The position numbers were made by a program, and so were the translations under genes. Under the pieces are notes generated by a model that did no database searches, was not told where the DNA came from, and was given only the letters and a program-made list of their open reading frames with translations. From Escherichia coli (GTDB lineage: Bacteria > Pseudomonadota > Gammaproteobacteria > Enterobacterales > Enterobacteriaceae), in the NCBI RefSeq assembly GCF_024223415.1, contig NZ_CP100500.1: 64,000 nucleotides of DNA; one strand, given 5' to 3'. Below, piece after piece: positions 19,623 to 64,000 of this stretch (positions within the stretch are counted from its first letter, which is position 1; each line of letters starts with the position of its first letter).

Positions 19623-20582
19623 TTAATTTACCATCAGTCTTAGAGCCAGTTCGTCCGGATAGGGATCGAAGTAATTCTGTGTAAGCAAGTAGTCATTAGG
19701 ATACTCACCCAGATAATGCTTCAGCAGAGTCAACGGCGCAAGAAGAGGTAATGTGCCAGAACGATAGTTAAGTATAACCTCGCTCAACTCTTTACGCTGG
19801 CGTGTACTTAAGTAGTTACTAAAATACCCCTGTATATGCATCAGCACATTCGTGTGATTTTTACGTGATGCAGGTTTTCTGAGAATCGCCATCAGCTTAT
19901 CACGATACACCTCAAAGTATGATTCAAGGTCCGCCCACTCGTGTATTGCAGCCACAAATGGTCCCATATCTTTATAGCCTGCCTGACTATGCGCCAACAA
20001 CTGAAGCTTATAACGACTATGAAAAGCTAATAACTCTCTTCTTGATAATTTCTCCTTGTAAAGGTGATTGAGCTCATGCAAAGCAAAAACTCTTTCAACA
20101 AAATTCTCACGAAGCACTGGATCATGTAATCGCCCATCCTCTTCAACCGGTAGCCAGGAAAACTTTTCCATCAAAGTGCTCGTAAATAGTCCCACTCCAT
20201 CTTTACGACCTCGATTACCATTTTCATCATAGACACGCACGCGCTCCATGCCACAGCTGGGAGATTTAGCACAAACCACAAACCCCGATACATCCTTTAA
20301 TTTGTCCATATAAGAACGACTAAACTCTGTCATTCTCTCTGTCACATCCTCATTCTGGTCGTGGCTGAAACACATCCGTATATTTCCTTGCGTCGAGCGC
20401 ACAAGACGTAGAGCAGGACGCGGAACTGGCAGCCCTATAGCCATTTCCGGACATACTGGTCTGAATGTTACCCATTCCACTAATTTGTCCATTAAAAAGT
20501 CAGCTCTTTTGTGACCACCATCAAAACGAACAGCAGAACCGGCCAAACAACCGCTGATTCCAATCACAGGTTTTTTTATCAT
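19623..20582 (-). CDS. DUF523 (TudS/YbbK-like) - DUF1722 (YbgA-like) fusion protein
   Basis: 319 aa; N-terminal GISGCLAG Cys-containing motif typical of DUF523, C-terminal YbgA-like region; assignment from motif recall. Confidence 0.6.
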   Translation of the reverse strand: MIKKPVIGISGCLAGSAVRFDGGHKRADFLMDKLVEWVTFRPVCPEMAIGLPVPRPALRLVRSTQGNIRMCFSHDQNEDVTERMTEFSRSYMDKLKDVSGFVVCAKSPSCGMERVRVYDENGNRGRKDGVGLFTSTLMEKFSWLPVEEDGRLHDPVLRENFVERVFALHELNHLYKEKLSRRELLAFHSRYKLQLLAHSQAGYKDMGPFVAAIHEWADLESYFEVYRDKLMAILRKPASRKNHTNVLMHIQGYFSNYLSTRQRKELSEVILNYRSGTLPLLAPLTLLKHYLGEYPNDYLLTQNYFDPYPDELALRLMVN

Positions 20583-20774
20583 ATCCTCCCCCTTGACTAA
20601 TTCATTAACACATAAACTGTGTAGTGCACGGAATAAATTGCCTTTCTGGCGTCATCACTGACAATTTTTCTGTTATGGACTATTCCTAATATAGTATGAA
20701 AGTTCTTTAAGTGATCGGTCGTAATCATCTATCTTTCATACTTACTCTCAACTATCAAAAGTACAGGATTTATT

Positions 20775-21299
20775 ATGAAGTTATGGCCTGTGTTGACTGG
20801 CATTGCACTCTCTTTCACTCTTATAGCATGTAAGGCCCCGACACCACCTAAAGGTGTGCAGCCGATTACAAATTTTGACGCCAACCGCTACCTCGGAAAA
20901 TGGTATGAAATAGCTCGCCTCGAGAACCGGTTCGAACGTGGTCTGGAACAGGTCAGCGCTACTTATGGAAAACGGAACGACGGAGGGATTCGTGTACTTA
21001 ACCGTGGATACGATCCAACGAAAAATAAATGGAGCGAGAGCGAAGGTAAAGCATACTTTACTGGAGATACTAAAACTGCAGCGTTGAAGGTTTCGTTTTT
21101 TGGCCCCTTCTATGGTGGCTATAATGTAATCAAACTGGATGATGAGTATAAGTATGCTCTTGTCAGTGGTCCGAACAGAGAATACCTATGGATTCTGGCA
21201 AGGACCCCAACTATTCCAGATAAAGTAAAAGCAGACTATGTGCGAACCGCTCAAAAGTTGGGATTCAATGTCAATGAATTATTATGGGTTAAACAATAA
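20775..21299 (+). CDS. blc: Outer-membrane lipocalin Blc homologue (lipoprotein)
   Basis: 174 aa; lipobox LIAC; GKWYEIARLENRFERGLEQVSATY and KVSFFGPFYGGYNVI closely resemble E. coli Blc as recalled. Confidence 0.85.
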   Translation: MKLWPVLTGIALSFTLIACKAPTPPKGVQPITNFDANRYLGKWYEIARLENRFERGLEQVSATYGKRNDGGIRVLNRGYDPTKNKWSESEGKAYFTGDTKTAALKVSFFGPFYGGYNVIKLDDEYKYALVSGPNREYLWILARTPTIPDKVKADYVRTAQKLGFNVNELLWVKQ

Positions 21300-29555: not shown

Positions 29556-29918
29556 ATGGCTAGCGAACGCAGTACTGATGTGCAGGCATTTATCGGGGAG
29601 CTGGACGGCGGCGTATTTGAAACCAAAATCGGCGCAGTTCTCAGTGAAGTCGCTTCCGGTGTGATGAACACGAAAACCAAAGGTAAGGTCTCGCTCAACC
29701 TAGAAATCGAACCGTTTGATGAGAACCGAGTGAAAATCAAACACAAACTCTCATATGTTCGCCCGACTAACCGCGGGAAAATTTCCGAAGAAGACACCAC
29801 CGAAACGCCGATGTATGTCAATCGCGGTGGTCGCCTGACTATTCTGCAGGAAGACCAGGGACAATTACTGACTCTTGCCGGTGAGCCTGACGGAAAACTC
29901 CGCGCAGCAGGTCGTTAA
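29556..29918 (+). CDS. YfdP-like early-left protein
   Basis: 120 aa from MASERSTDVQAF... with AGGAG RBS 7 nt upstream; directly precedes YfdQ/YfdR-like genes. Confidence 0.5.
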   Translation: MASERSTDVQAFIGELDGGVFETKIGAVLSEVASGVMNTKTKGKVSLNLEIEPFDENRVKIKHKLSYVRPTNRGKISEEDTTETPMYVNRGGRLTILQEDQGQLLTLAGEPDGKLRAAGR

Positions 29919-29983
29919 TATCGTTCTTAATAAACTGATTATTTATCTCATCACTGAATATCTTTATATAGTGAGGACTTATT

Positions 29984-30808
29984 ATGTCTCAGAACTTAGA
30001 CGCAACCGCAATTAATCAAATCCATGCCCTTATTTCTGCTCAGGGTGTTAATGAAATTATCAGTAAGATTGGTGCCGATGCTGTGGCATTGCCTGAGAAT
30101 TTCCGCATTCATGATCTGGAAAAACTTAATTTAAATCGCTTCCGTTTCCGTGGTGCGCTTTCCACTGCCAGCATCGATGACTTTACCCGTTATTCTAAAG
30201 ATCTTGCAGATGAAGGCACCCGCTGCTTTATCGATGCCGATAATATGCGAGCCGTCAGTGTGCTTAACCTGGGTACTATTGATGAACCAGGTCACGCAGA
30301 TAACACCGCCACTCTCAAACTGAAAAAGACAGCACCGTTCTCTGCCCTGTTGTCTGTTAACGGCGAGCGTAACTCCCAGAAGTCACTGGCAGAATGGATT
30401 GAAGACTGGGCCGACTACCTTGTGGGCTTTGATGCTAATGGTGACGCCATTCAGGCAACCAAAGCGGCTGCGGCGATCCGTAAAATCACAATTGAAGCGA
30501 ACCAGACCGCTGATTTTGAAGATAATGACTTCAGCGGCAAACGCTCCCTGATGGAGTCTGTCGAAGCGAAGACCAAAGACATTATGCCAGTGGCATTTGA
30601 ATTTAAATGCGTTCCGTTTGAAGGTCTGAAAGAACGTCCGTTTAAATTACGCCTCAGCATTATCACTGGCGATCGTCCTGTACTGGTACTACGCATTATT
30701 CAGCTGGAAGCAGTGCAGGAGGAAATGGCTAACGAATTTCGTGATCTGCTTGTTGAGAAGTTCAAAGACAGCAAAGTAGAAACCTTTATTGGTACTTTCA
30801 CCGCCTGA
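29984..30808 (+). CDS. YfdQ-like protein (DUF2303)
   Basis: 274 aa; size and order match the CPS-53 yfdQ/yfdR arrangement as recalled. Confidence 0.6.
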
Positions 30809-30936
30809 TTTCATTACTGCAAATGCCCCTGCGGGGGCATTTATGGAAACGTAATTGACTCAATATTCGCCTGATGGCGAGGTTTTTCTTTAACCAAATT
30901 TCAGCGCGGTGCAGCGCATATAACGTGGAGAACAAA

Positions 30937-31473
30937 ATGTCATTTATTAAAACTTTTTCCGGGAAGCATTTTTATTATGACAGGATAAATAAAGACAACA
31001 TCGATATTAACGATATCGCGGTTTCCCTTTCAAATATCTGTCGCTTTGCAGGACATCTTTCACACTTCTACAGCGTCGCCCAACATGCGGTGCTTTGCAG
31101 CCAGCTGGTACCGCAGGAATTTGCTTTTGAAGCGTTAATGCATGATGCAACAGAAGCTTATTGTCAGGACATCCCCGCGCCACTGAAACGCCTTCTTCCT
31201 GACTATAAACGGATGGAAGAAAAAATAGACGCCGTAATCCGTGAGAAATACGGGTTACCCCCGGTTATGAGCACGCCTGTGAAATATGCCGATCTCATCA
31301 TGCTGGCAACCGAACGCCGCGATCTCGGGCTTGATGATGGCTCTTTCTGGCCTGTACTGGAAGGCATCCCGGCAACAGAGATGTTCAACGTGATTCCACT
31401 GGCACCGGGCCATGCCTACGGGATGTTTATGGAACGTTTTAACGAGTTATCGGAGTTACGCAAATGCGCATGA
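30937..31473 (+). CDS. YfdR-like HD-domain phosphohydrolase
   Basis: From MSFIKTFSGKHFYY...; HD-type His/Asp residues (…FAGHLSHFYSVAQHAV…MHDATEAY…). Confidence 0.65.
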   Translation: MSFIKTFSGKHFYYDRINKDNIDINDIAVSLSNICRFAGHLSHFYSVAQHAVLCSQLVPQEFAFEALMHDATEAYCQDIPAPLKRLLPDYKRMEEKIDAVIREKYGLPPVMSTPVKYADLIMLATERRDLGLDDGSFWPVLEGIPATEMFNVIPLAPGHAYGMFMERFNELSELRKCA

Positions 31474-31742
31474 ATGTTTTCGAAATGGAAGGGTTTCTTC
31501 GTGGGAGATGTGTACCGCGAGATCTGAAAGTGAATGAAACAGATGCTGAATACCTAGTGCGCAAATTCGATGCGCTTGAAGCTAAATGTGCAGCACAGGA
31601 AAACAAAGCAATACCAGTGTCAACTGAACTGCCACCAGCAAATGAAAGTGTTTTGTTATTCGATGCTAACGGAGAAGGCTGGCTAATTGGCTGGTGTTCT
31701 CTCTGGTACACCTGGGGACAAAAAGAAACCGGAGAATGGTAG
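31464..31742 (+). CDS. Hypothetical early protein
   Basis: 92 aa ORF overlapping the upstream stop (coupled). Confidence 0.35.
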   Translation: MRMNVFEMEGFLRGRCVPRDLKVNETDAEYLVRKFDALEAKCAAQENKAIPVSTELPPANESVLLFDANGEGWLIGWCSLWYTWGQKETGEW

Positions 31743-31825
31743 TGGACATTTCAGGTCGGGGACCTTGAAAACGTCAATATCACTCACTGGGCAGTAATGC
31801 CAAAAGCACCGGAGGCTGGAGCATA

Positions 31826-32131
31826 ATGACCACATTTACCAATAAAGGACTGATTAAAGAAATCAAAGAACGAATCAGCAGCCTAGATGTTCGAGACGAT
31901 ATTGAGCGCCGTGCTTATGAAATCGCACTCGTATCTCTGGAAGTAGAGCCAGATGAACGCGAAGCCTATGAATTATTCATGGAAAAGCGTTTCGGTGACT
32001 TAGTAGATCGTCGGAGAGCAAAAAACGGCGATAACGAATACATGGCATGGGATATGACTCTCGGTTGGATCGTCTGGCAGCAACGAGCTGGTATCCATTT
32101 TTCAACAATGACACAGCAAGAGGTGAAATAA
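31826..32131 (+). CDS. Hypothetical early protein
   Basis: 101 aa ORF upstream of xis. Confidence 0.35.
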   Translation: MTTFTNKGLIKEIKERISSLDVRDDIERRAYEIALVSLEVEPDEREAYELFMEKRFGDLVDRRRAKNGDNEYMAWDMTLGWIVWQQRAGIHFSTMTQQEVK

Positions 32132-32502
32132 TGGAGCCATACAGCCTCACACTCGATGAGGCCTGTCAGTTTCTTAAGATATCCAGACCAACCGCCACCA
32201 ACTGGATACGAACAGGCCGCCTACAGGCAACACGTAAAGATCCAACCAAGCCAAAATCTCCTTACCTCACAACACGGCAAGCCTGCATTGCGGCGCTTCA
32301 GTCTCCGCTGCATACTGTCCAGGTGAGCGCGGGTGATGGCATAACAGAGGAAAGAAAATGTCACTCTTCCGCAGAAATGAAATATGGTATGCCTCGTATT
32401 CGCTCCCGGGCGGGAAACGAATTAAGGAATCTCTTGGCACAAAGGACAAGCGGCAAGCTCAGGAGTTGCACGACAAGCGAAAAGCAGAACTCTGGCGAGT
32501 AG
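32131..32502 (+). CDS. xis: Excisionase (AlpA/Xis-type HTH), unusually extended C-terminus
   Basis: From [35 protein letters not shown]; frame stays open to 32502, overlapping int start by about 145 nt. Confidence 0.5.
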
Positions 32503-33521
32503 AAAAGCTAGGGGATTTACCTGATGTCACTTTTGAAGAGGCCTGCCTAAGATGGCTTGAGGAAAAAGCTGATAAAAAATCTCTCGATTCAGATAAAAGC
32601 CGGATTGAGTTCTAGCTTGAACATTTTGAGGGTATAAGGCTTAAAGATATCTCGGAGGCAAAGATTTACTCTGCTGTAAGCAGAATGCATAACAGAAAGA
32701 CGAAAGAAATATGGAAACAGAAAGTTCAGGCCGCCATCAGGAAAGGTAAAGAACCGCCTGTTTATGAACCAAAGCCAGTATCAACTCAGACAAAGGCAAA
32801 GCATCTTGCCATGATAAAGGCCATTCTCCGTGCTGCAGAACGCGACTGGAAGTGGCTGGAAAAAGCGCCTGTCATCAAGATACCAGCGGTCAGAAACAAG
32901 CGAGTCAGATGGCTGGAAAAGGAGGAAGCAAAACGCCTTATTGATGAGTGCCCCGAACCACTGAAATCTGTCGTCAAGTTTGCGCTGGCAACTGGTCTGA
33001 GAAAGTCGAACATCATAAATCTGGAATGGCAACAAATCGACATGCAGCGACGAGTTGCCTGGGTGAATCCAGAAGAGAGCAAATCAAACCGCGCCATTGG
33101 TGTGGCGCTGAACGATACCGCCTGTAAAGTGTTGCGTGATCAAATAGGCAAGCATCACAAATGGGTGTTTGTACATACCAAGGCGGCTAAGCGAGCAGAT
33201 GGAACATCAACGCCTGCGGTCAGGAAGATGCGCATCGACAGCAAGACATCATGGCTATCAGCTTGTCGTCGTGCAGGAATTGAAGATTTCCGTTTCCATG
33301 ACCTCAGACACACCTGGGCAAGCTGGCTGATCCAGTCAGGCGTCCCATTATCAGTGCTTCAGGAAATGGGCGGATGGGAGTCCATAGAAATGGTTCGTAG
33401 GTATGCTCACCTTGCGCCTAATCATTTGACAGAGCATGCAAGGAAAATAGACGACATTTTTGGTGATAATGTCCCAAATATGTCCCACTCTGGAATTATG
33501 GAGGATATAAAGAAGGCGTAA
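32358..33521 (+). pseudogene. intD: Tyrosine integrase (IntD-type) interrupted by in-frame TAG at codon 86
   Basis: [19 protein letters not shown]...SRIEF then TAG at 32613-32615, then the same frame continues [11 protein letters not shown]... to the catalytic domain (…HDLRHTWAS…RYAHL…). Confidence 0.8.
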
Positions 33522-33536
33522 CTGATTGAATTGTAA

Positions 33537-33613
33537 TGGCGCGCCCTGCAGGATTCGAACCTGCGGCCCACGACTTAGAAGGTCGTTGCTCTATCCAACT
33601 GAGCTAAGGGCGC
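33537..33613 (-). tRNA. argU: tRNA-Arg (anticodon UCU)
   Basis: 77-nt cloverleaf on minus strand, anticodon loop CTTCTAAGT, T-arm GGTTCGAATCC, 3' CCA; immediately downstream of int. Confidence 0.9.
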
Positions 33614-54230: not shown

Positions 54231-54644
54231 GGAGTCATAAATGGGATATATCTATAACTTATTTTCAATAAGGTATTGATTTAATTAAACAACTTACACT
54301 ACAAAAAGTGCCAAAAATCGCAAATTAACTACACCATTAACTACACCGTTCGGCGCACTGTATGAAACAACGTGGAACAAATAGGCACAAGAAATATAAA
54401 GGCGGGTAATTTTAAGGGGGCGTTGCTGTCGATACGGGGATCCACATATCGAGATTGATACCTGGCTTTTTTTCCGGTTAACCTTTAATCAGGCTGGTGG
54501 GCTTTACCTGTTCTGTAGGAGTGGTCATTATGACCATTCAGCCAATGACCTTAATCAGAATTTTTCGCTAAAAAATGACGTTGGCCACGTCATCCGGAAA
54601 GCACAAAATCACGTCGATTTTTAATGGATGGTTAAACCGTCTTT

Positions 54645-54950
54645 TTGTCACGGTGTGTCACTGGTTGTCACGCTCTGTCACGATGTCCGGCCTCCTCACA
54701 TTGAGGATTGTGGAAGAATCAATGGGTTAGTCTTACTACCCAAACTACGGGTAGTTTCCGTAGTTTCATGGTCGAGTTGCAGATCTGCAACTCCCCCATC
54801 AACCACAGGCGAATTTCCGCCTTCGGTCATTCCTTAATCATCTGCGTAATCATAATGATTATTCAGCCACCTCAATTTTGAGGTTTGCTTTAAGTTCAGC
54901 GAGTTACCGCGCCGACTTCCTCAAATTGAGGTTTCCGAAAATATCAGTGG
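54645..54950. repeat. Repeat-dense non-coding region (phased TGTCAC repeats, CCTCA-N-TGAGG palindromes, 20-bp perfect palindrome)
   Basis: TGTCAC x4 at exactly 10-bp spacing (54645-54680); palindromes CCTCACATTGAGG (54693), CCTCAATTTTGAGG (54870), CCTCAAATTGAGG (54919); GAGTTGCAGATCTGCAACTC (54774-54793). Confidence 0.6.
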
Positions 54951-55087
54951 GTTAGCGATTAAGCTGACCATTAATTAAACTGCGAAAATTTCGTAGTTTG
55001 TGACTGTCTTTCAGGCAGCTTGTTATCAGTCCTCAGATGTGAGGGATGTAGCCAGCGCAATTTTGCGTTATCGGGAATATCAGCAAG

Positions 55088-55369
55088 TTACCGCCGTAAC
55101 CGTTCCGGCTTCTTCCACTGATAAGTGTTTTTCGCGCTCTCCTGATACATCGCCACGCGTCGACGGTATGCCAGCAACTCTAGTACTCTGATTCGTATGT
55201 CGCGCATATCCACGCCGTTAAGCTCAATACCATCACGGCGCATTACATCAGCAACAACACGCACGTAATTTTCGGCGATCACGCTGTCCGGCTGCGTGGC
55301 CTGTTCGTCATGCTGCTGGCTGATTCCGGTAACGCGGCGGATTAATCCCAGTAGTTCGGCTTCTGTCAT
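55088..55369 (-). CDS. Hypothetical protein
   Basis: 93 aa ORF at the end of the element's minus-strand gene series. Confidence 0.35.
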   Translation of the reverse strand: MTEAELLGLIRRVTGISQQHDEQATQPDSVIAENYVRVVADVMRRDGIELNGVDMRDIRIRVLELLAYRRRVAMYQESAKNTYQWKKPERLRR

Positions 55370-55661
55370 TGTGCCCCCATCGCTCTGATAGTCTGGTGTC
55401 GTCGGGTCCTTCTGGAATTATGGCCCGTTACGGGGCGTCGACCTCGCGGTTTTTCGCTATTTATGAGCTTTTTTAGAGGGAGGTTGTTGTTTAATTGTTT
55501 GTCATATCCATTTGATAACTAAGTAAAAATAAAGAGCAATACAACAACCTGATAGTGTTTTTTTGATGCTAAAAATAAAAAAATACTAATTGAATCAAAT
55601 AGTTTTAAAAAAATACGTGGTTGTTGTATTGCGTATTTGATGGCGTAACAGAAAGTGATTT

Positions 55662-56102
55662 TTAACTTTGCTGTTCTGTAACGACTGATTGTTCCATGCT
55701 GGCACGGCGAACGCTTACGGCATGACGCCACCCAGCCAGAAAGCCAGCCATTTTATTTCGTGCCTTGCTCACATCTTCCGGTGAATAGCCGTAAATATGC
55801 AAACCTTCATCAAATCGCTGTTCTGTTTCTTCACTGAAATACTCGTCGCGCTCTGACGCAATCAACCTGGCAACCATAATCTTTTCCAGTGCGCTGGTTT
55901 CTCCGTGGTACTCAATAGCATCAAGATGGCTTTTACCCATGCACCAGAATAATGTGTGTCCGATGTGATAACCGCCGGACTTTCCGCGATCCGCATCAAG
56001 ATATGGCATGCCCTGTTTGGTCCATGCGCGAATAGTGGTTCTGTTGACCTTGAAATGTTCTGCTATTTCCTGCTGACTCACAAAACAAGCTTTATCAATC
56101 AT
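55662..56102 (-). CDS. Nu1-like HTH protein (terminase small subunit-like / packaging specificity candidate)
   Basis: 146 aa; N-terminal SQQEIAEHFKVNRTTIRAWTKQGMPY...GGYHIGH resembles lambda Nu1 N-terminal DNA-binding domain. Confidence 0.45.
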   Translation of the reverse strand: MIDKACFVSQQEIAEHFKVNRTTIRAWTKQGMPYLDADRGKSGGYHIGHTLFWCMGKSHLDAIEYHGETSALEKIMVARLIASERDEYFSEETEQRFDEGLHIYGYSPEDVSKARNKMAGFLAGWRHAVSVRRASMEQSVVTEQQS

Positions 56103-56235
56103 AATGTTACCTTAATCATGCGATTAAATGTTAATCAAGTGGTGGTGGTGTCACCTTCACGGAAAAACGTCATAAATAGCGAAAACGCGCGAGGTCGACG
56201 CCCCGTAACGGGTCCACATGCCGGAAAGGACCCGC

Positions 56236-56258
56236 AAAAAAAGCCGGATTTCTCCGGC
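56236..56258 (-). terminator. Intrinsic terminator
   Basis: Minus-strand hairpin GCCGGA-loop-TCCGGC followed by TTTTTTT, downstream of ORF 56265-56678. Confidence 0.45.
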
Positions 56259-56264
56259 CTTGTC

Positions 56265-56678
56265 TCAGATGGTTTTCAGTATGCGATCGATGTCGCCGTC
56301 ATCGCCCTGGTTTGTGCCATCGTATGCCATGCCAGCTGATACGGCTTTCGGGCTGTGCATGTCCATAAAGTTTTCAAAGGCTGAAGTAAGCTCTGGTGCA
56401 ACCTTCGGGCGTTCCTGCTCTATGGTCATGCTAAGGATGCTTTTAGCCGTACCAACATCGATACAAGGCACGTTAGCCATTGCACGTAACAGCGGCTGGT
56501 AGTCGTCAGATTCATGAAGCGCCATAATCGCATCAGCGCGCGGCTTGTCCTGTTCTTCCAGTTTGTTGAGTCGGTGTATGGCCTCGTAGGTTGATAAACC
56601 TCTGTCAGCCATTGCCCGCGCTTCGGCTTTAAATTTACTCGCCAGCGGTAGCTTCATGATACTTTCATTCGTTGCCAT
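56265..56678 (-). CDS. Hypothetical head-module protein
   Basis: 137 aa acidic protein directly downstream of the gpD-like gene. Confidence 0.35.
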   Translation of the reverse strand: MATNESIMKLPLASKFKAEARAMADRGLSTYEAIHRLNKLEEQDKPRADAIMALHESDDYQPLLRAMANVPCIDVGTAKSILSMTIEQERPKVAPELTSAFENFMDMHSPKAVSAGMAYDGTNQGDDGDIDRILKTI

Positions 56679-56690
56679 CGTTCCCCCTGC

Positions 56691-57026
56691 TTATCGTGCC
56701 AGCGGCTGAACGGATACGCCGGAACCCGCAAAGGCGGCGCATTTTTTCGCATCGGTGTCGACGCTATCAGGCCAGTTAACGGCGGCAATATTGAATATCC
56801 CCGTTTTGTAACACTGTGCTGATTTCTGCTTTGACGTGTCCACGGGGTGCGAAGTCAGATAAACAGCTTTGCCAGATTCCTGACCATCCCACGCCTTAAA
56901 CTCGCCATTGTCTGCCAGCATCAGCGGGGTAAATTCCTGAATAACGCCAGCATCAGCGGCAAAATGTACCAGCGTCGTGGATACCTGCTGGCTGCCTGAA
57001 AATAACTCAATGTATGGAGCGTCCAT
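56691..57026 (-). CDS. Head decoration protein (lambda gpD-like)
   Basis: 111 aa; ...LMLADNGEFKAWDG...AAFAGSGVSV resembles gpD; adjacent to gpE-like gene. Confidence 0.6.
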   Translation of the reverse strand: MDAPYIELFSGSQQVSTTLVHFAADAGVIQEFTPLMLADNGEFKAWDGQESGKAVYLTSHPVDTSKQKSAQCYKTGIFNIAAVNWPDSVDTDAKKCAAFAGSGVSVQPLAR

Positions 57027-57037
57027 AGAATCCCCCG

Positions 57038-58093
57038 TTAAGCAATTTTGACGGTAACAAATTTGCGAATATCTGCCGGTACCGGCTGCGGTGCGCTGTG
57101 CGTCTGCACGTACTCAATCGCCGGATCGCCGTCCTCAATCCAGTTTTTCGGGTAGTACATGTTTTGCGTTGCGCCCGTTCTTACCGCTTCCTGATCCATA
57201 ATCGCACCATATGCCACCAGCCCTTTATTGTTGGTGTTACCCAGGACCAGCAAATCAGGCTCAAGGAAATATTTTTCGGTGCCGTCGCTGTCAGTGTATT
57301 TGCCGGAATAGACGATAAGGGCCAGATCACCAAGATAGCCTTTAAAGCTCACCACTTCGCCCAGGTTTTTACAGGCCAGCTCGGCGGCGGATTCTGACCC
57401 ACGGGAAAGATCGTACAGTTCACGGAATTTTTTAAAGCTGCGTAATGTGCGCCATACCTCACCGCCCATAATCATGACGTTGGCGGGGCAACCTGCCTGA
57501 TCAGCATAAAGCTCGATGTCATAGATTGGGTCGTGCATGTCTTTATCCTGCTGGGACCATTTTTTACCACTGGCCTGCTGTATGATGCAGTTTTCCGGTA
57601 TTTTCCAGTCGATTTCATAGCGTTCTATGCCTTCGCCCTCAATGATGTTTTTTCCGGTCGTTACCGCATTCACCGCCAGCCATTCAACACGCGCTTTAAT
57701 GGCGTTTACCTGGCGGCGCATGTTGCCAGTAATCAGGCGCATACGGCGATAGGTTGGGTCGTTAAGCTGTGCCGGATCTTCTCCAGCCATGCGCATGATG
57801 GTCTTTGTTGGATCGATTTCGTGCTTTGGCTTCATGTAGCCTGGTTTAATCGTGCTGGTTTCGTACCCTTTATCGCGCTGGACCTGACTACCCACCATAG
57901 GAGAACAGAACGCAGACATCGTAACCTCTTCAATGTCCAGGGTGTCCAGCATGATGTTTTGGGTGTTGAAGGTCGCCACGTTCGGGAAAAACAGCGTGGT
58001 AAACAGCGGACTAAATTTAAATTCCGAAATATCCCCGCGATTCAGGTACGCGAAAAGCTGGTTAGTTGTAAGTGCCGTTGCTTTGCCTGTCAT
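57038..58093 (-). CDS. Major capsid protein (lambda gpE-like)
   Basis: 351 aa; shares with lambda gpE the blocks PGYMKPKHE, EDPAQLNDPTYRR, YSGKY, YPKNW..GDPA, SAP. Confidence 0.8.
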   Translation of the reverse strand: MTGKATALTTNQLFAYLNRGDISEFKFSPLFTTLFFPNVATFNTQNIMLDTLDIEEVTMSAFCSPMVGSQVQRDKGYETSTIKPGYMKPKHEIDPTKTIMRMAGEDPAQLNDPTYRRMRLITGNMRRQVNAIKARVEWLAVNAVTTGKNIIEGEGIERYEIDWKIPENCIIQQASGKKWSQQDKDMHDPIYDIELYADQAGCPANVMIMGGEVWRTLRSFKKFRELYDLSRGSESAAELACKNLGEVVSFKGYLGDLALIVYSGKYTDSDGTEKYFLEPDLLVLGNTNNKGLVAYGAIMDQEAVRTGATQNMYYPKNWIEDGDPAIEYVQTHSAPQPVPADIRKFVTVKIA

Positions 58094-58299
58094 TATTCAC
58101 CTCCGTGAACCTGATTGATACCCAGCGCCGCACGTAAATAGGTGCGCACCTGCCAGCCTGTTGACGGCTCAACCATCGCCAGCGGATCAAGTCCTGCCGC
58201 AATGCCTGCTTTTACATTCTGCTGGTGGCGTTCCTTGAGCGCCTCCACGATGTCGGGGCTTATGTAGACCGTCACCCCGCCTTTTTTCTCTTCTGCCAT
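58093..58299 (-). CDS. Hypothetical small protein upstream of capsid gene
   Basis: 68 aa ORF whose stop overlaps the capsid start. Confidence 0.3.
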   Translation of the reverse strand: MAEEKKGGVTVYISPDIVEALKERHQQNVKAGIAAGLDPLAMVEPSTGWQVRTYLRAALGINQVHGGE

Positions 58300-58466
58300 A
58301 GTCAGAAATTCCTCTTTGACTTAAAAAATCATAACTGGATGTTCATCCAGTCCTGATTATAATCATGATTGCATTTTGTGCAATAATGTTGAGTTGTGTT
58401 GCAAATTATGAAATGATTATCCCGATCATGTGTGTCAGTGCACCATAAAAAACCTCGTATACAAAA

Positions 58467-58532
58467 GCCCGATAAGCCCCCTGTGACCTTATCGGGCTTT
58501 TTTTAGGCGTAAAAAAGCCGGATTGCTCCGGC
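58467..58532. terminator. Back-to-back intrinsic terminators
   Basis: Plus-strand hairpin GCCCGATAAG-loop-CTTATCGGGC + T7 (58467-58504) and minus-strand hairpin GCCGGA-TTGC-TCCGGC + T6 (58511-58532) just downstream of the PerC-like gene. Confidence 0.5.
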
Positions 58533-58539
58533 TGTGTGC

Positions 58540-58812
58540 TCACTTCTGCGGGTAGTTGCGCCATATTGCTTTGCCAATACCAGCTATCCCCATTTGTTTT
58601 TCAGTGCGATTAACTGACCTTTTCAGAGCGCCTAAATCATCCGGCGGCTCCGGTGGCCTCTGTGCCTTCCGTGAACATTCCAGCCGTCGCATTGCCACCT
58701 GTGCGCGTTCCTTGTCTGTCTCCACCAGCATCATCACTTCACCCCATCGCGCGGCCGCCCTCCGGTAAAATCCTTTCGCCTCCAGTTCCTCCGCTATCCG
58801 GTCATGTACCAT
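58540..58812 (-). CDS. PerC/ANR-like putative regulator
   Basis: From MVHDRIAEELEAKGFYRRAAARWGEV with GAGGGGG RBS; motif shared with prophage ORF 25038-25532. Confidence 0.4.
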   Translation of the reverse strand: MVHDRIAEELEAKGFYRRAAARWGEVMMLVETDKERAQVAMRRLECSRKAQRPPEPPDDLGALKRSVNRTEKQMGIAGIGKAIWRNYPQK

Positions 58813-58822
58813 CGTCACCCCC

Positions 58823-59233
58823 TCAGAACGGAATATCATCACCGTAAGGGTCATCGCCTCCCGCTGGTGGCTGATTACCCTGTGTGCCTGTGGTTTTGCG
58901 TCTGTTCCCGCCAGGACGTGCCGCACGGGCACTGATTACGCTGTCTGCGATGACCTGCCAGCCCTGCCGCGTTTCGCCGTTCTGGCCTGTCCACTGGCTT
59001 ACCTGCATGTTACCCGCCACGCTCACCAGTTCGCCTTTGTGGTGTCTGGCCAGTGCGTCGGCCTGTCTGCCAAACGCCAGGACGGATAACCACATCGTCG
59101 CCGTTCCGTCATCTGCCTGGCTGCATGGCAGGGGAACCGCCATACTCGCCATCGCCATTTGTGTCCCTTTGCTGGTCTGTTTTGTCTGCGGGTCGTCCAC
59201 CAGCCGCCCGTAAGCCGCTATCTGTGCTGTCAT
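58823..59233 (-). CDS. ssb: Single-stranded DNA-binding protein (SSB)
   Basis: 136 aa; OB-fold-like N-terminal region, Gly/Pro/Gln-rich linker, C-terminal acidic tip ...GDDPYGDDIPF typical of SSB. Confidence 0.7.
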   Translation of the reverse strand: MTAQIAAYGRLVDDPQTKQTSKGTQMAMASMAVPLPCSQADDGTATMWLSVLAFGRQADALARHHKGELVSVAGNMQVSQWTGQNGETRQGWQVIADSVISARAARPGGNRRKTTGTQGNQPPAGGDDPYGDDIPF

Positions 59234-59487
59234 GCTGTCTGCTCTCCGGTTTTAACATTGATGGTTGTCACCTGTTCCGCTCCGGCAATCTCCCGCTCTG
59301 TCAGCGTGGCAAAGTTTGCCGCCGTCGTTGTCATGAATGCGCTTATCAGTTCGGGATGTGCTTTCGCGTATCCTTCCCCCGTGTTGCGGTCGATGATTTT
59401 TATCGCCACCCTCAGCCAGTGCTCTGTAAGGTCAATGGCGCGGTTATGTGATTTCTTCTGATTGTTAAATTTTTCTGATGTGTGCAT
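59230..59487 (-). CDS. Hypothetical protein
   Basis: 85 aa ORF between origin and SSB, coupled to SSB start. Confidence 0.35.
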   Translation of the reverse strand: MHTSEKFNNQKKSHNRAIDLTEHWLRVAIKIIDRNTGEGYAKAHPELISAFMTTTAANFATLTEREIAGAEQVTTINVKTGEQTA

Positions 59488-59533
59488 TTTTATTTTTACC
59501 CCCTCGTTTAAAAAGTTTTGAGTTGTGGTGCAC

Positions 59534-59766
59534 CTCCTCTACCTCTCTACACAATCATCTTTCAGGTCAGTAATGGCGCGGCTTTCAGCGGGGTAGAGGG
59601 CTTTTTTGGCCCTCTACCCGCCATCTACCACCCCCTCACAAATGCCCTGAATTATGGTAGAGGGTGTAGAGGGCTTTTAAGTACCTTCTACCTGCCATCC
59701 ACCCAATCTATCCACATGAAATATATGTAATTATTTTCTTAAGGTAGAAGGGGTAGAGGGCTTTTG
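59534..59766. repeat. Iteron-type replication origin of the second element
   Basis: Multiple direct and inverted copies of GGTAGAGGGCTTTT (and variants GGTAGAAGG, rc CCCTCTACC) immediately 3' of the primase gene. Confidence 0.65.
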
Positions 59767-59773
59767 TCTAAAA

Positions 59774-61522
59774 CTATAAAAACGCGTCGCAGTCGTCTGT
59801 TGTTGTCACGTTGGTTTGCGTAAACCCTTTAATCCTGCGCGTTATATATTCATGACCGTAAACTTTCGCCGCTGGCTTCATGGCCTTGCTGAACTCAGCC
59901 ACGTTCAGCGGTTTGCTCCTGCCTGCATACGCCATAAACGCCAGATAGACGCGGTAAAGGCTGTTTCTGGTCGTGTACTTCACTGAATCGCCACCGCCGC
60001 CCATCATCAGGCCACGTGCTTCCTCCAGAAAATTCAGGAACTGGCAAAACTCAATAACCGGATCCGTCTGTTGCTTTATTGCCAGAGCTTCATCACCGTC
60101 TCGCTGTTCAATGAGTAAAGCCCGTGCCTTTTCAGGGTCGGCAAAGTTCGCCAGCAAGCGGCGGATAATGACAGGGATTTCAGCCGCGATCTTTTCCGGT
60201 AGCTCCCTGTCTTTTTCTGCCTCGCTTACGATGTTATCGAACCGGAATATCACCCGACGACGTGACACGCCTCCTGCCCGTTCGGTGAATATCATCGGGT
60301 TATTATTGGTTGCCAGCACAACCGCCCTGATTACCGCCGTGAATCGCTTTTCATATTTCGGGTTGATTTCCACGGGGTCGCCGCCCGTGATTTTCTTGAT
60401 GCCCGTTCCTTCGCCTGTATATTTCGGCTGGTCTGCCAGGACAATAAGCCTACTCCCGACAACCTGCGCACGCCCACCAGCATCATCAAGCGATGTCATC
60501 TCAGCGCTTACCGTGTTCTGTTTCCCTGCCAGAAGGCTGGCTATGTGTGTGAATGTACTTTTACCGCTCCCGCCGTCTCCGGTGGCCTCAATAAACATCT
60601 GCCAGTCGTACCGGTTCGCCATAATCATGTACAGCGCGGCACATATACGCATCATCTTGCGCGGGTCTTTTCCGGCAGCGTGATCAAGCCATTTATGAAA
60701 GTTTGGCGCGTTGTCGCGGATATTCTCACCTGGTACTGGCGGCGTGTACTCAATGCCGTTGTGTGTGGTGATCCAGTTCTCCGGCGTGTGCGGGGAAAAT
60801 TCCCCCGTTTTCAGGTCAAGCGCACCATTGGCGAACGGCAGCAAATCGCCGGACGGCTCGCCCATTGGTTCGGCAATAACTTTTAACGCTTCCACGGCGT
60901 TACTGATTACGCGCTTGCTGAAAGTGGCCCTGTGCTCTGAATAGATCGCCACCATTTCGCGGCTCAGTTCCATTGTGCTGACCGGACACCATACCCCGCC
61001 GCGCCATACGTGAACGATTTCACTTTCCAGATGCACACAAACGCCATCAAATCGACCAGCAAGCATCTGTGCGCGCTCACTGTCTGCCATTTGTGCCAGT
61101 TGCGTATTTTTCTGCTCCGGCATGGTAAGCCCTGCGGCAATATTTTCACGCTCAGCATTCAGATAGCGCCGCCAGTTTTCACACTTCTGACCGTGCATTC
61201 CTTCAGAGTAAAAATTCGCATCCTGAATATCTGCCGCCGCCAGCTTCTGACCAATCTTTTTGGTCTCCACTAAATCCAGTTCTCCGGCCTGGTACAGCCT
61301 TACGCGTTTTTTTCCATCCGGAACAATTTTCAGCGCATCAAGTTCAGCAAGCTGATTTGGCCCAAGCCACACAGGCGGCACATTATCGCCGGATGCGGGA
61401 CCGTCCTTCTCCTGCCACTGTTGTGCATGCGACCAGGCATCACTACCCGCAAAGATAATTACCTCTGTGTCTTTGTGTTTTATTCCGCGTGGCTGTTTTT
61501 TTACGTTCGGTGCCAGTTTCAT
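59774..61522 (-). CDS. Primase/replicative helicase (D5_N/Primase_C + SF3 helicase, P4-alpha/PICI Pri-Rep type)
   Basis: 582 aa; Walker A GDGGSGKST; origin iterons directly downstream. Confidence 0.8.
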   Translation of the reverse strand: MKLAPNVKKQPRGIKHKDTEVIIFAGSDAWSHAQQWQEKDGPASGDNVPPVWLGPNQLAELDALKIVPDGKKRVRLYQAGELDLVETKKIGQKLAAADIQDANFYSEGMHGQKCENWRRYLNAERENIAAGLTMPEQKNTQLAQMADSERAQMLAGRFDGVCVHLESEIVHVWRGGVWCPVSTMELSREMVAIYSEHRATFSKRVISNAVEALKVIAEPMGEPSGDLLPFANGALDLKTGEFSPHTPENWITTHNGIEYTPPVPGENIRDNAPNFHKWLDHAAGKDPRKMMRICAALYMIMANRYDWQMFIEATGDGGSGKSTFTHIASLLAGKQNTVSAEMTSLDDAGGRAQVVGSRLIVLADQPKYTGEGTGIKKITGGDPVEINPKYEKRFTAVIRAVVLATNNNPMIFTERAGGVSRRRVIFRFDNIVSEAEKDRELPEKIAAEIPVIIRRLLANFADPEKARALLIEQRDGDEALAIKQQTDPVIEFCQFLNFLEEARGLMMGGGGDSVKYTTRNSLYRVYLAFMAYAGRSKPLNVAEFSKAMKPAAKVYGHEYITRRIKGFTQTNVTTTDDCDAFL

Positions 61523-61818
61523 TTTTTACCCCTGAATACGTTAAGCATCTTTTTTATTTCCTGAATATTGGCGCGTGCTTTCTCCCTGCTGGTTGGTTTA
61601 CTGCGGGGCGCTGCCTGTACCAGAGAAAAATCACGCCGGAACTGATAAACAGGCATCACGCAATCATATTCGTAGCCTTCACGGCGGTAAGTGATGCGCC
61701 GTTCCTCCACGCCTTTAATCGTTACCGTGCCGCCGTACTGGTCGCGGTAAATATCGCCGTTCATAAATTCAGGCCGAGCGGGGCCGCTGGCATTAACGCC
61801 AGTATTTTTCATTCCCAT
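61519..61818 (-). CDS. Small conserved protein upstream of primase
   Basis: 99 aa; motif RITYRREGYEYDCVMPVYQFRRDF shared with prophage ORF 26460-26681. Confidence 0.45.
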   Translation of the reverse strand: MGMKNTGVNASGPARPEFMNGDIYRDQYGGTVTIKGVEERRITYRREGYEYDCVMPVYQFRRDFSLVQAAPRSKPTSREKARANIQEIKKMLNVFRGKK

Positions 61819-61822
61819 ATAA

Positions 61823-62065
61823 TTAAATTCCGTTTGTGTGGTGTTTTAATTCGTCAATTTTTTCTAATGCTTTGTTTATCTTGCTGGTGGAAATATCCAG
61901 CAATTCAGAAATAGCAAATATAAGTCTTGCCGTTGATTCATCTCTTTCGTTGTTTGACAGCAATTGAAACCACACGTTTGTAATTTCAATTGCCGAATTA
62001 TTATAGGTTATTGCACTGTTCATGTATTCCGACACCTCTGCAAGCGAAAGTTTATTATTCTCCAT
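61823..62065 (-). CDS. Hypothetical protein
   Basis: 80 aa ORF in tightly packed minus-strand operon. Confidence 0.3.
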   Translation of the reverse strand: MENNKLSLAEVSEYMNSAITYNNSAIEITNVWFQLLSNNERDESTARLIFAISELLDISTSKINKALEKIDELKHHTNGI

Positions 62066-62246
62066 AACGTTCTACCCTCTCATCAATTAACCACAGTGCA
62101 ACACTTCCTGACAGTCTTGCCAGAAGGCCAGCTAATGCGGATATATCATCATCATTTAATTTATTAGGGTACGCTTCAAGAAGTCTGCAAATAATTTCGG
62201 TTTGGTGGGCGCGTTCAGCGGCTTCGTGTAATGTAATTTCCTTCAT
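62055..62246 (-). CDS. Hypothetical protein
   Basis: 63 aa ORF, overlapping neighbours. Confidence 0.3.
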   Translation of the reverse strand: MKEITLHEAAERAHQTEIICRLLEAYPNKLNDDDISALAGLLARLSGSVALWLIDERVERYGE

Positions 62247-62431
62247 TAATGCACCTCTTTTAATTCATACACTGCTGAAATAATGACTTGTGATAAGCCA
62301 TATTCTGATGATTCGCTTCTCACCGCAGCAATAGCCGTCTGAACATTAACAGCCTTCACATTCTGAGCGATACCAATTGTGTGGCCTAGTGGGTTAACAG
62401 CTCGGGCAAATACACGGAAGGTTTTAAGCAT
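62246..62431 (-). CDS. Hypothetical protein
   Basis: 61 aa ORF, overlapping neighbours. Confidence 0.3.
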   Translation of the reverse strand: MLKTFRVFARAVNPLGHTIGIAQNVKAVNVQTAIAAVRSESSEYGLSQVIISAVYELKEVH

Positions 62432-62831
62432 GGCGCACCCCCTGAATAACCTGATATCCGCAACTGGTCAGCAATTCGATAAATTCCGGCAGAGTGCCAA
62501 AACAGCAATCAGTGCGTAGCTGTTCGCAGGATACCTCAACGCCGTTTTCGTAATGGCTCACTATGCGCCCGGTAAAATGCGGATCATCATCGTGATGGCA
62601 CGTTGACGGTTTCATCAGCCGCGCGCGTTCCGCCAGTTCCAGCAATGCTTCAACGCTTCCGGCAATTGCACCATCCGGCAGGTGATAATTACTTACTACG
62701 CGTCCATTCTCTACATTGACCAGTAGCTGTCCGGTAAATTTCTCACGAAACTGAACGCGGTTAAGATCGGTAAGTGACAGGTTAATCATGGCACACCTCC
62801 TGACGAATACGGGCGGCGAATACAGCGACAC
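62424..62831 (-). CDS. Hypothetical protein
   Basis: 135 aa ORF at head of the minus-strand operon. Confidence 0.35.
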   Translation of the reverse strand: MSLYSPPVFVRRCAMINLSLTDLNRVQFREKFTGQLLVNVENGRVVSNYHLPDGAIAGSVEALLELAERARLMKPSTCHHDDDPHFTGRIVSHYENGVEVSCEQLRTDCCFGTLPEFIELLTSCGYQVIQGVRHA

Positions 62832-63172
62832 AACCGGACGGGCAACGGTTACGCGCTTCGCGTTCTGTCCAGGCGGTCACGTGGATAATTTGAGATTCTC
62901 CGGCACTCAGTGCCAGAAAACGCCACACAAAGGCGGTTTGTGTGTGCGCAAGGCGTGGGGTATGCTGTGTTCCAGCCATAATCGTTACCTCAATTAATGG
63001 TTTGGTTAGAAGCCCGTTGGTGTTCATAGCGCCAGCGGGCTTTGTCTTTTCATCGATTACCTCAATAAAGGTGTCAGCCACTATACTAGTAACAGGTGTC
63101 AGCCACGTCAATAGTGTTTTTCCATTTTCTTGTGTGTATACTGTCAGCCACCTAATAACAAGGAAATCAGAT

Positions 63173-63352
63173 ATGGCAACGAAAGCAGTTAATGGAAAAT
63201 CCAAAAAACTTGAGGCACGAGTCCCCCATGCAATAGCTGACGCTTTAGAAAATTTAAAGGAAGAAGGCGAAAGCACTGGGCAATTTATCGTTTCGGCACT
63301 TGAAGGCGAGATCAAACGCCGCCAGCGCCGGAAGGCCAAAGAATCAGAATAA
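63173..63352 (+). CDS. Small basic protein (possible DNA-binding regulator)
   Basis: 59 aa from MATKAVNGKSKKLEARVPHAIADALENLKEEG...; divergent from the minus-strand operon. Confidence 0.35.
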   Translation: MATKAVNGKSKKLEARVPHAIADALENLKEEGESTGQFIVSALEGEIKRRQRRKAKESE

Positions 63353-63409
63353 TCACTATCAGCGCCGTGGTGTGAGGTACTGCGGCGCATTGTTTTAAAG
63401 GTGATAATT

Positions 63410-63601
63410 ATGAATAACCAAGAACTACAAAATAAAGCATTATCAATTATCATGCGCCAGCGTGAGAAAACCCGCAGGGAAATAAATAAGGCATTAACCC
63501 GCACTGAAAATCTTAAAGTTCCTGATAAGTTCGCCCTTGATCCTTTTGTCGAGAAATACCCTCGGCGCTTAAAAGCAAACAAAAACCGCCCACCTGGCTG
63601 A
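63410..63601 (+). CDS. Hypothetical small protein
   Basis: 63 aa ORF followed by an intrinsic terminator. Confidence 0.3.
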   Translation: MNNQELQNKALSIIMRQREKTRREINKALTRTENLKVPDKFALDPFVEKYPRRLKANKNRPPG

Positions 63602-63635
63602 CAATCCACCAGCAAGCCAGGACACTGATCACATT

Positions 63636-63663
63636 GGCCACCGTGACAGGTGGCCTTTTCTTT
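63636..63663 (+). terminator. Intrinsic terminator
   Basis: GGCCACC-GTGACA-GGTGGCC hairpin followed by TTTTCTTT. Confidence 0.5.
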
Positions 63664-64000
63664 GCCCGTTATCCGGCAATTGTGGCGCTTCGCCACACGG
63701 TTGATATAATCCCACTGCTCATATTCATTTTTTGCGCAGTAGGTTAATTGTTCAGAAAGGCGGCTCCTTATCGGGGCCGCTTTTTTTATGTCTGAAAAAC
63801 CGCGATTTTGTTGTTTTTCAGTTTCACAAGGCCGAACGAAGCCCCGCCCCTGTTCGGGCGTATATCCAGTCTTCATGGTTAAATCTCTGTATTAGTGGAT
63901 GGGTGGCGGCTGTGTGCCGCCAGTCTTTTTAGTGAACTGCCTCGCAGCTTTCCTTCCATGCCAGAACTTCGGATAAAGACCAGCCAACGGAACGACCGCC

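Follow-up and report, generated by a model that had tools for sequence, protein, structure and literature searches.

The integrase gene beside argU in this Escherichia coli chromosome is interrupted by one amber codon, in a prophage that looks otherwise close to complete. The question raised by the locus is whether this stop is real and, if it is, whether it keeps the prophage from leaving the chromosome. We addressed it within a 64-kb stretch of DNA (64,000 nucleotides, referred to here as the window) and by comparison with related genomes, prophages and free phages.

The integrase gene and its amber codon

IntD, the integrase of the cryptic prophage DLP12 of E. coli K-12, is a heterobivalent tyrosine recombinase of the P22/lambda type that integrates at argU. 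The window holds a gene of this type:

32358–33521, plus strand: intD-type tyrosine integrase gene (int) of 387 codons with one amber, a pseudogene (translation, Pfam, AlphaFold2 model, 99.7–99.8% identity to annotated intD).
32613–32615, plus strand: amber TAG at codon 86, TGG (Trp) in relatives, through a G to A change at 32614 (base-level comparison with relatives).

Translated in a single frame, int runs from MSLFRR to a normal stop at codon 388 and contains one internal stop, at codon 86. The peptide preceding this stop ends in SRIEF, the frame continues beyond it to the end of the gene, and the 301 codons on its 3' side are free of stops. The original prediction of a single in-frame amber was thus accurate in its coordinates, codon number and flanking peptide. 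In the list of open reading frames the gene accordingly appears as two pieces, of 85 amino acids (32358–32615) and 278 amino acids (32685–33521). Over its 1164 nt, int shares 99.7–99.8% identity with intD or integrase annotations in many complete E. coli genomes, none of the complete genomes matched being identical to it throughout. Each half of int shares about 99.7% identity with intact alleles, and the frame stays open for 301 codons beyond the stop; TAG86 is therefore not a chance occurrence, and int is, on its sequence, a genuine nonsense pseudogene.

The K-12 intD gene is nearly identical, differing from the window at six positions (32450, 32614, 32755, 33332, 33440 and 33493), and has the same start, the same three-domain architecture and the same position beside argU, with fimZ and sfm beyond. 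This near-identity, together with a location directly beside argU, identifies int as an intD allele of the DLP12/argU type. In K-12, however, codon 86 is TGG and all 387 codons of intD are open, within a prophage that has suffered heavy deletion, whereas the window has an amber codon in a nearly complete one. The Trp expected at this position from K-12 IntD is present there and in every relative inspected base by base: G is present at 32614 in intD of K-12 MG1655, in strain E2865, in two further assemblies and in phages Kati, 2G7b and Turner. The closest complete genome, GF43, shows two differences from the window in int, of which 32614 is one (G in GF43, A in the window; TGG versus TAG).

Searched with a 61-nt probe centred on codon 86, 1635 complete E. 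coli genomes and 14 phage records gave matches, all at 98.4% (one mismatch); an identical match to the TAG86 probe was found in 0 of the 1635 genomes and 0 of the 14 phage records. The argU-type lambdoid phages (Kati, Turner, 2G7b, ev243, PhiR26_1 to PhiR68_2) have an xis-int-att module 99.4–99.7% identical to that of the window. They differ in that all 14 records are one base off in the probe, with TGG in Kati, 2G7b and Turner, and in having been recovered as free phages. An exact 41-mer with TAG86 found no match in IMG/VR, hence no examples on viral contigs. In an alignment of 50 distant homologues, column 86 has a hydrophobic residue in 47 (L 19, W 13, F 6, V 5, I 4).

That TAG86 is a single-base difference from all complete genomes matched would also be expected of an error of sequencing or assembly in the source record, but the same base recurs elsewhere. 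The window is 100% identical over 10,258 of 10,258 nt to contig UDHK01000010.1 of the E. coli assembly GCA_900482235.1, where the fragment is annotated as SRA08811.1, and over 4,087 of 4,087 nt to the Logan assembly of a different run, SRR8689735. Three further assemblies carry TAG86 on other haplotypes: GCA_965257805.1 (L003), SRR6764081 (L005) and ERR9384424 (L012). The exact 85-residue product, deposited as SRA08811.1, is present on 22 contigs, although some of these are partial genes cut at a contig end. As judged from these matches, a sequencing error is an unlikely source of the stop, and we give an error in the source record almost no weight.

Domains of the integrase and its predicted truncated product

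A conceptually repaired integrase, with the stop read through, contains the Pfam domain PF00589 (Phage_integrase) at residues 184–355 (E=5.5e-47; 160.2 bits against a cut-off of 27.1). The residues R215, K242, H314, R317, W340 and Y349 are invariant in the 50-sequence alignment, which comprises representatives at 31–64% identity and also served as input for an AlphaFold2 model, and all six are encoded in frame 3' of the stop. The full tyrosine-recombinase catalytic domain expected beyond the amber is indeed there. The AlphaFold2 model of the repaired protein (mean pLDDT 91.3) has an arm-binding domain with a three-stranded sheet (residues 3–25) and a helix (31–51), a core-binding domain with helices at 59–69, 76–90, 100–108, 113–128 and 143–163, and a catalytic domain at 188–367. 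A Foldseek comparison matched the whole length of the model to lambda Int (1z1b, 1z1g and 5j0n; E about 1e-9). Model and Foldseek alignment together give the arm-binding, helical core-binding and catalytic domains of a heterobivalent, lambda Int-like integrase.

Residue 86 falls within helix 76–90, the second helix of the modelled core-binding domain. Because the stop lies in this helix and the catalytic residues are all encoded downstream, the whole catalytic part is lost from the product. The two parts of the gene are as follows:

32358–32615, plus strand: predicted 85-amino-acid product, consisting of the arm-binding domain (sheet 3–25, helix 31–51), helix 59–69 and part of helix 76–90 (open reading frame list, AlphaFold2 model).
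32616–33521, plus strand: remainder of int, predicted to be untranslated, encoding the core-binding domain from the stop onward and all of the catalytic domain (open reading frame list, alignment, AlphaFold2 model).

The 85-residue product contains none of the catalytic residues. The next in-frame start after TAG86 is the ATG at 32685 (M110), which is preceded by CTGTAAGCAGA; no good Shine-Dalgarno sequence is found in that segment, and a protein starting at M110 would be without three core-binding helices of the model. Judged from the sequence, a proper start is available for a single product, the arm-binding fragment of 85 residues. In its fold, its catalytic residues and its place in the genome, int is an IntD-type integrase, and the one feature of a functional enzyme that this allele lacks is an open frame joining the arm-binding and catalytic domains, which is interrupted by TAG at codon 86 and resumes with an in-frame start only at M110. 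We did not take the occurrence of the 278-residue downstream reading frame in 119 blocks as a sign that int is frequently broken, as M110 is called as the start in intact TGG alleles too (L017, L020). Gene callers choose M110 even there probably because the true int start overlaps xis.

The surrounding prophage and a second amber codon

The elements around int are listed below:

1–33536, no strand assigned: the part of a lambdoid prophage that lies in the window, from tail tip assembly genes to int, with its left end, including J, the tail fibres and the other att site, beyond the window start (mEp460-like structural genes, CPS-53/e14-like early region).
32131–32502, plus strand: xis, an intact excisionase gene of 123 amino acids with an HTH_17 domain, overlapping the int start (Pfam HTH_17, E=1.2e-8).
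33537–33613, minus strand: tRNA-Arg(TCT) gene argU, the integration site (ARAGORN; the sole tRNA in 64 kb).
31464–31826, plus strand: yfdS/DUF551-like early gene with a second amber, CAG to TAG at 31740–31742 (codon 93) (one stop by tblastn; codon comparison with L023 and L003).

The structural proteins are 94–100% identical to those of phage mEp460, and for the regulatory genes, early and late, the matches are in strain GDSC2BY4G and phage PhiR40_1. The xis product is 80% identical, over its full length, to an annotated 116-amino-acid protein of GDSC2BY4G, and its DNA is that of phage Kati except at position 32283. At the other end of int, identity between the prophage and the free phages in our SNP table (Kati, 2G7b, Turner) extends to 33581, within argU. 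Positions 33537–33581 would therefore be the 3' part of argU supplied by the phage, holding the att core; a second copy of the att-core segment was not found in the 64-kb window. Beyond argU follow fimZ and the sfm fimbrial operon, as at the classical DLP12/argU locus.

About 40 reference prophage proteins align full length to the window without a stop or frameshift, the exception being the yfdS-like gene, whose product is 92 instead of 120 amino acids long. The expectation that the rest of the prophage is largely intact thus holds for xis, the argU junction and some 40 genes within the 33.5 kb of prophage in the window, and fails for this one gene, which the second amber cuts short. The 92-residue product (SRA08813.1) is found on five contigs. 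The yfdS-like amber is common to GCA_900482235.1 and SRR8689735 and absent from L003; since L003 has TAG86 without it, the two ambers are separate events. A general pseudogene load or a mutator signature was considered and rejected, as the compared chromosomal genes (33.8–54 kb), the satellite-island genes beyond them (to 64 kb) and the other prophage genes were without stops.

Several features of the neighbourhood may be recorded here. When window positions 29556–32626 are compared with 22050–24200 of L023, a module swap is apparent, in which the CPS-53/KplE1-like genes yfdP, yfdQ, yfdR, yfdS and yfdT are joined to an integrase of the intD/argU type. A 97.7%-identical prophage in GDSC2BY4G has an IntS-like integrase instead, and the divergence begins at the int start. 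Between the antiterminator gene Q and the lysis genes (19623–21299) lie cargo-like genes for YbgA-family and lipocalin-family proteins, identical or nearly so to those of GDSC2BY4G. Beside allC, at about 54300–64000, a P4-like satellite or phage-related island extends past the end of the window; it resembles an island in strain AR_0085 and encodes a major capsid protein, head decoration protein, head-tail connector, SSB, PerC, primase/helicase, DUF4222 and an Icd-like protein.

Probable consequences for excision, and recurrence of the stop

We consider it very probable that TAG86 is a real and recent loss-of-function mutation, Trp86 (TGG) to amber, in the int gene of an otherwise nearly intact argU lambdoid prophage, and that it locks this prophage in the chromosome. 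Translation of int would stop after 85 residues, leaving the arm-site-binding domain with a stub of the core-binding domain, and no polypeptide would have both the arm-binding and the catalytic parts. Recombination between attL and attR could therefore not be assembled, and the prophage would be locked in place. It could still escape if the codon reverted or was suppressed, through occasional readthrough, or with Int provided in trans. Traces of full-length Int could be made, because UAG followed by C, as here, is a comparatively leaky stop among E. coli termination contexts. The undecayed frame 3' of the stop is what a young lesion would be expected to show, and it would fit continued use as well.

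Experiments on lambda Int bear on this reading. According to Williams et al. (2022, PMC9791396), the C-terminal part of lambda Int alone cannot recombine, and separate N- and C-terminal polypeptides, when mixed, are also inactive unless engineered. TAG86 lies about 20 residues past the boundary at which lambda Int was split (N-terminal domain, residues 1–64), and the window int would likewise yield an arm-binding fragment plus, at best, a catalytic fragment apart from it. It differs from the split enzyme in that no start is evident for its C-terminal part before M110 and that this part would miss three core-binding helices; the engineered lambda system itself needed an activating mutation and an added peptide to work. 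By this domain logic, and by analogy with the lambda experiments, the prophage is probably excision-defective, or 'grounded', as had been predicted.

Prophages are recognised to become grounded through mutation of the recombinase gene (Ramisetty and Sudhakari 2019, PMC6379469). Grounded or cryptic prophages that arise through int, xis or att lesions (PMC6379469) and the classical lambda int amber mutants share with the window a point lesion of the recombinase in an otherwise competent prophage; here the lesion is the int amber, while xis and the argU-side junction match the free phages. The phenotype expected of such prophages, immunity without excision, is for the window prophage predicted from sequence. 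It would differ from other grounded prophages in having only just begun to decay, two nonsense changes being seen across 33.5 kb. A nearly complete prophage that is probably unable to excise bears on predicted inducibility, phage release and stability of the element in this strain. It also captures the first step of prophage domestication cleanly, with a working integrase one base away. Prophages are known, and expected, to decay through nonsense mutations of their integrase genes, and stops comparable to this one are public at other intD codons, so that nothing here is new in principle; the int amber is an ordinary early step of that decay.

TAG86 is found on at least three intD haplotypes in the SNP table: that of the window, a Kati-like type (L003) and an E2865-like type (L005 and L012). 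The L003 haplotype is the phage Kati allele with the single G-to-A change at codon 86, and the E2865-like haplotype also has the K-12 base at 32755. In L005 the stop is in another prophage, with the early genes Gam/Bet/Exo in place of yfdP to yfdT; in L012 the DNA upstream of xis differs from the window, and the contig is too short to identify the prophage. L003 belongs to a different host lineage, since its chromosomal flank has 66 SNPs relative to the window in 4,079 nt (1.6%). The available SNPs are compatible both with TAG86 having arisen more than once and with its having moved by short-patch recombination. Control look-ups of the products expected from other Trp stops showed W66 TAG (L028), W66 TGA (L029) and W119 TGA (L038) to be present in public assemblies, in line with ordinary mutational decay of intD. 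Three backgrounds for TAG86, against about one each for the other stops, do not amount to a convincing excess given how heavily E. coli is sequenced; these counts of nonsense alleles are lower bounds, with up to 24 contigs examined per look-up.

The same observations could be read as a sign that the amber is silent or leaky, with a suppressor tRNA, UAG readthrough or Int supplied in trans from another intD-type prophage providing enough integrase for the prophage to stay mobile. The 301 undamaged codons after the stop would suit such use, as would the second lesion in the same prophage being an amber too, with no other kind of lesion seen. The occurrence of TAG86 in three haplotype and prophage backgrounds and two host lineages could in principle reflect horizontal spread, and some genomes have up to three intD-like places from which Int might come. 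Lambdoid phages usually carry their tRNA genes between Q and the lysis genes, but that region has none here: argU is the only tRNA gene in the window, and ARAGORN found no suppressor tRNA with a CUA anticodon in its 64 kb, so the window itself gives no sign of a suppressor-dependent gene. The allele is also missing from all 14 isolated phages and all 1635 complete genomes. A supE suppressor inserts Gln, which would suit position 86 badly, as 47 of 50 homologues have a hydrophobic residue there. Finally, two ambers out of two transition nonsense mutations are not unusual, since stops that arise in one step come mainly from CAG and TGG. We regard a still mobile prophage as distinctly improbable.

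A use for the fragment itself is less probable still. The 85-residue arm-binding product might, for example, bind at arm sites in related phages or in its own att region, in a dominant-negative or regulatory role, so that the allele would be kept by selection and recur. The model does predict a complete arm-binding fold in the fragment, and TAG86 recurs on three intD haplotypes, one of them the Kati allele with only this change. Against this, the allele is rare, stops at W66 and W119 occur in about one background each with no clear excess at codon 86, the database has N-terminal truncations of many other lengths at about the same frequency, and no experimental result points to such a function. 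N-terminal intD fragments of 65, 94, 91 and 85 amino acids, for instance, are found in the database cluster on 46, 31, 23 and 22 contigs, respectively. A loss-of-function stop in a young, grounded prophage remains the reading that we favour.

A few local explanations for a stop at this particular codon were also examined. Half of the contigs with the 85-residue product end at codon 85/86, and a polymorphism hotspot at codon 86 was considered from these contig ends. It was rejected, since the ends fall in all three codon phases and truncated products of 65 to 97 amino acids have similar contig counts; many retrieved contigs end at the queried codon because a look-up by one exact product length selects such ends. 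A Dcm hotspot was rejected as well, the wild-type context (TCTGG / CCAGA) not being a CCWGG site. TAG86 does lie within a 14-nt quasi-palindrome at 32607–32620, GTTC-T-(G>A)GCT-T-GAAC, in which the mutation adds symmetry and creates a central AGCT, and the codons for Trp66 and Trp86 share the motif TGGCTTGA, with amber alleles at the same G in both. With arms of only 4 bp, templating of the mutation by the quasi-palindrome is an idea of low probability from sequence, and the controls do not support it. One could go further and imagine TAG86 as a recurrent 'grounding' switch that has arisen or been kept on at least three haplotypes, lies in the quasi-palindrome that it makes more symmetric, yields a free arm-binding domain that could interfere with related phages and lets a one-base reversion re-arm the prophage; we would call this a long shot.

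Contig ends at another codon of int gave a separate observation. Seven of the eight contig-end cases shown for the 65-residue look-up stop right after the T of the Trp66 codon (gene base 196; 32553/32554). The 65-residue product is indexed in 103 blocks, which suggests a recurrent assembly-graph branch at 32554, and at this same codon the W66 amber allele of L028 exists.
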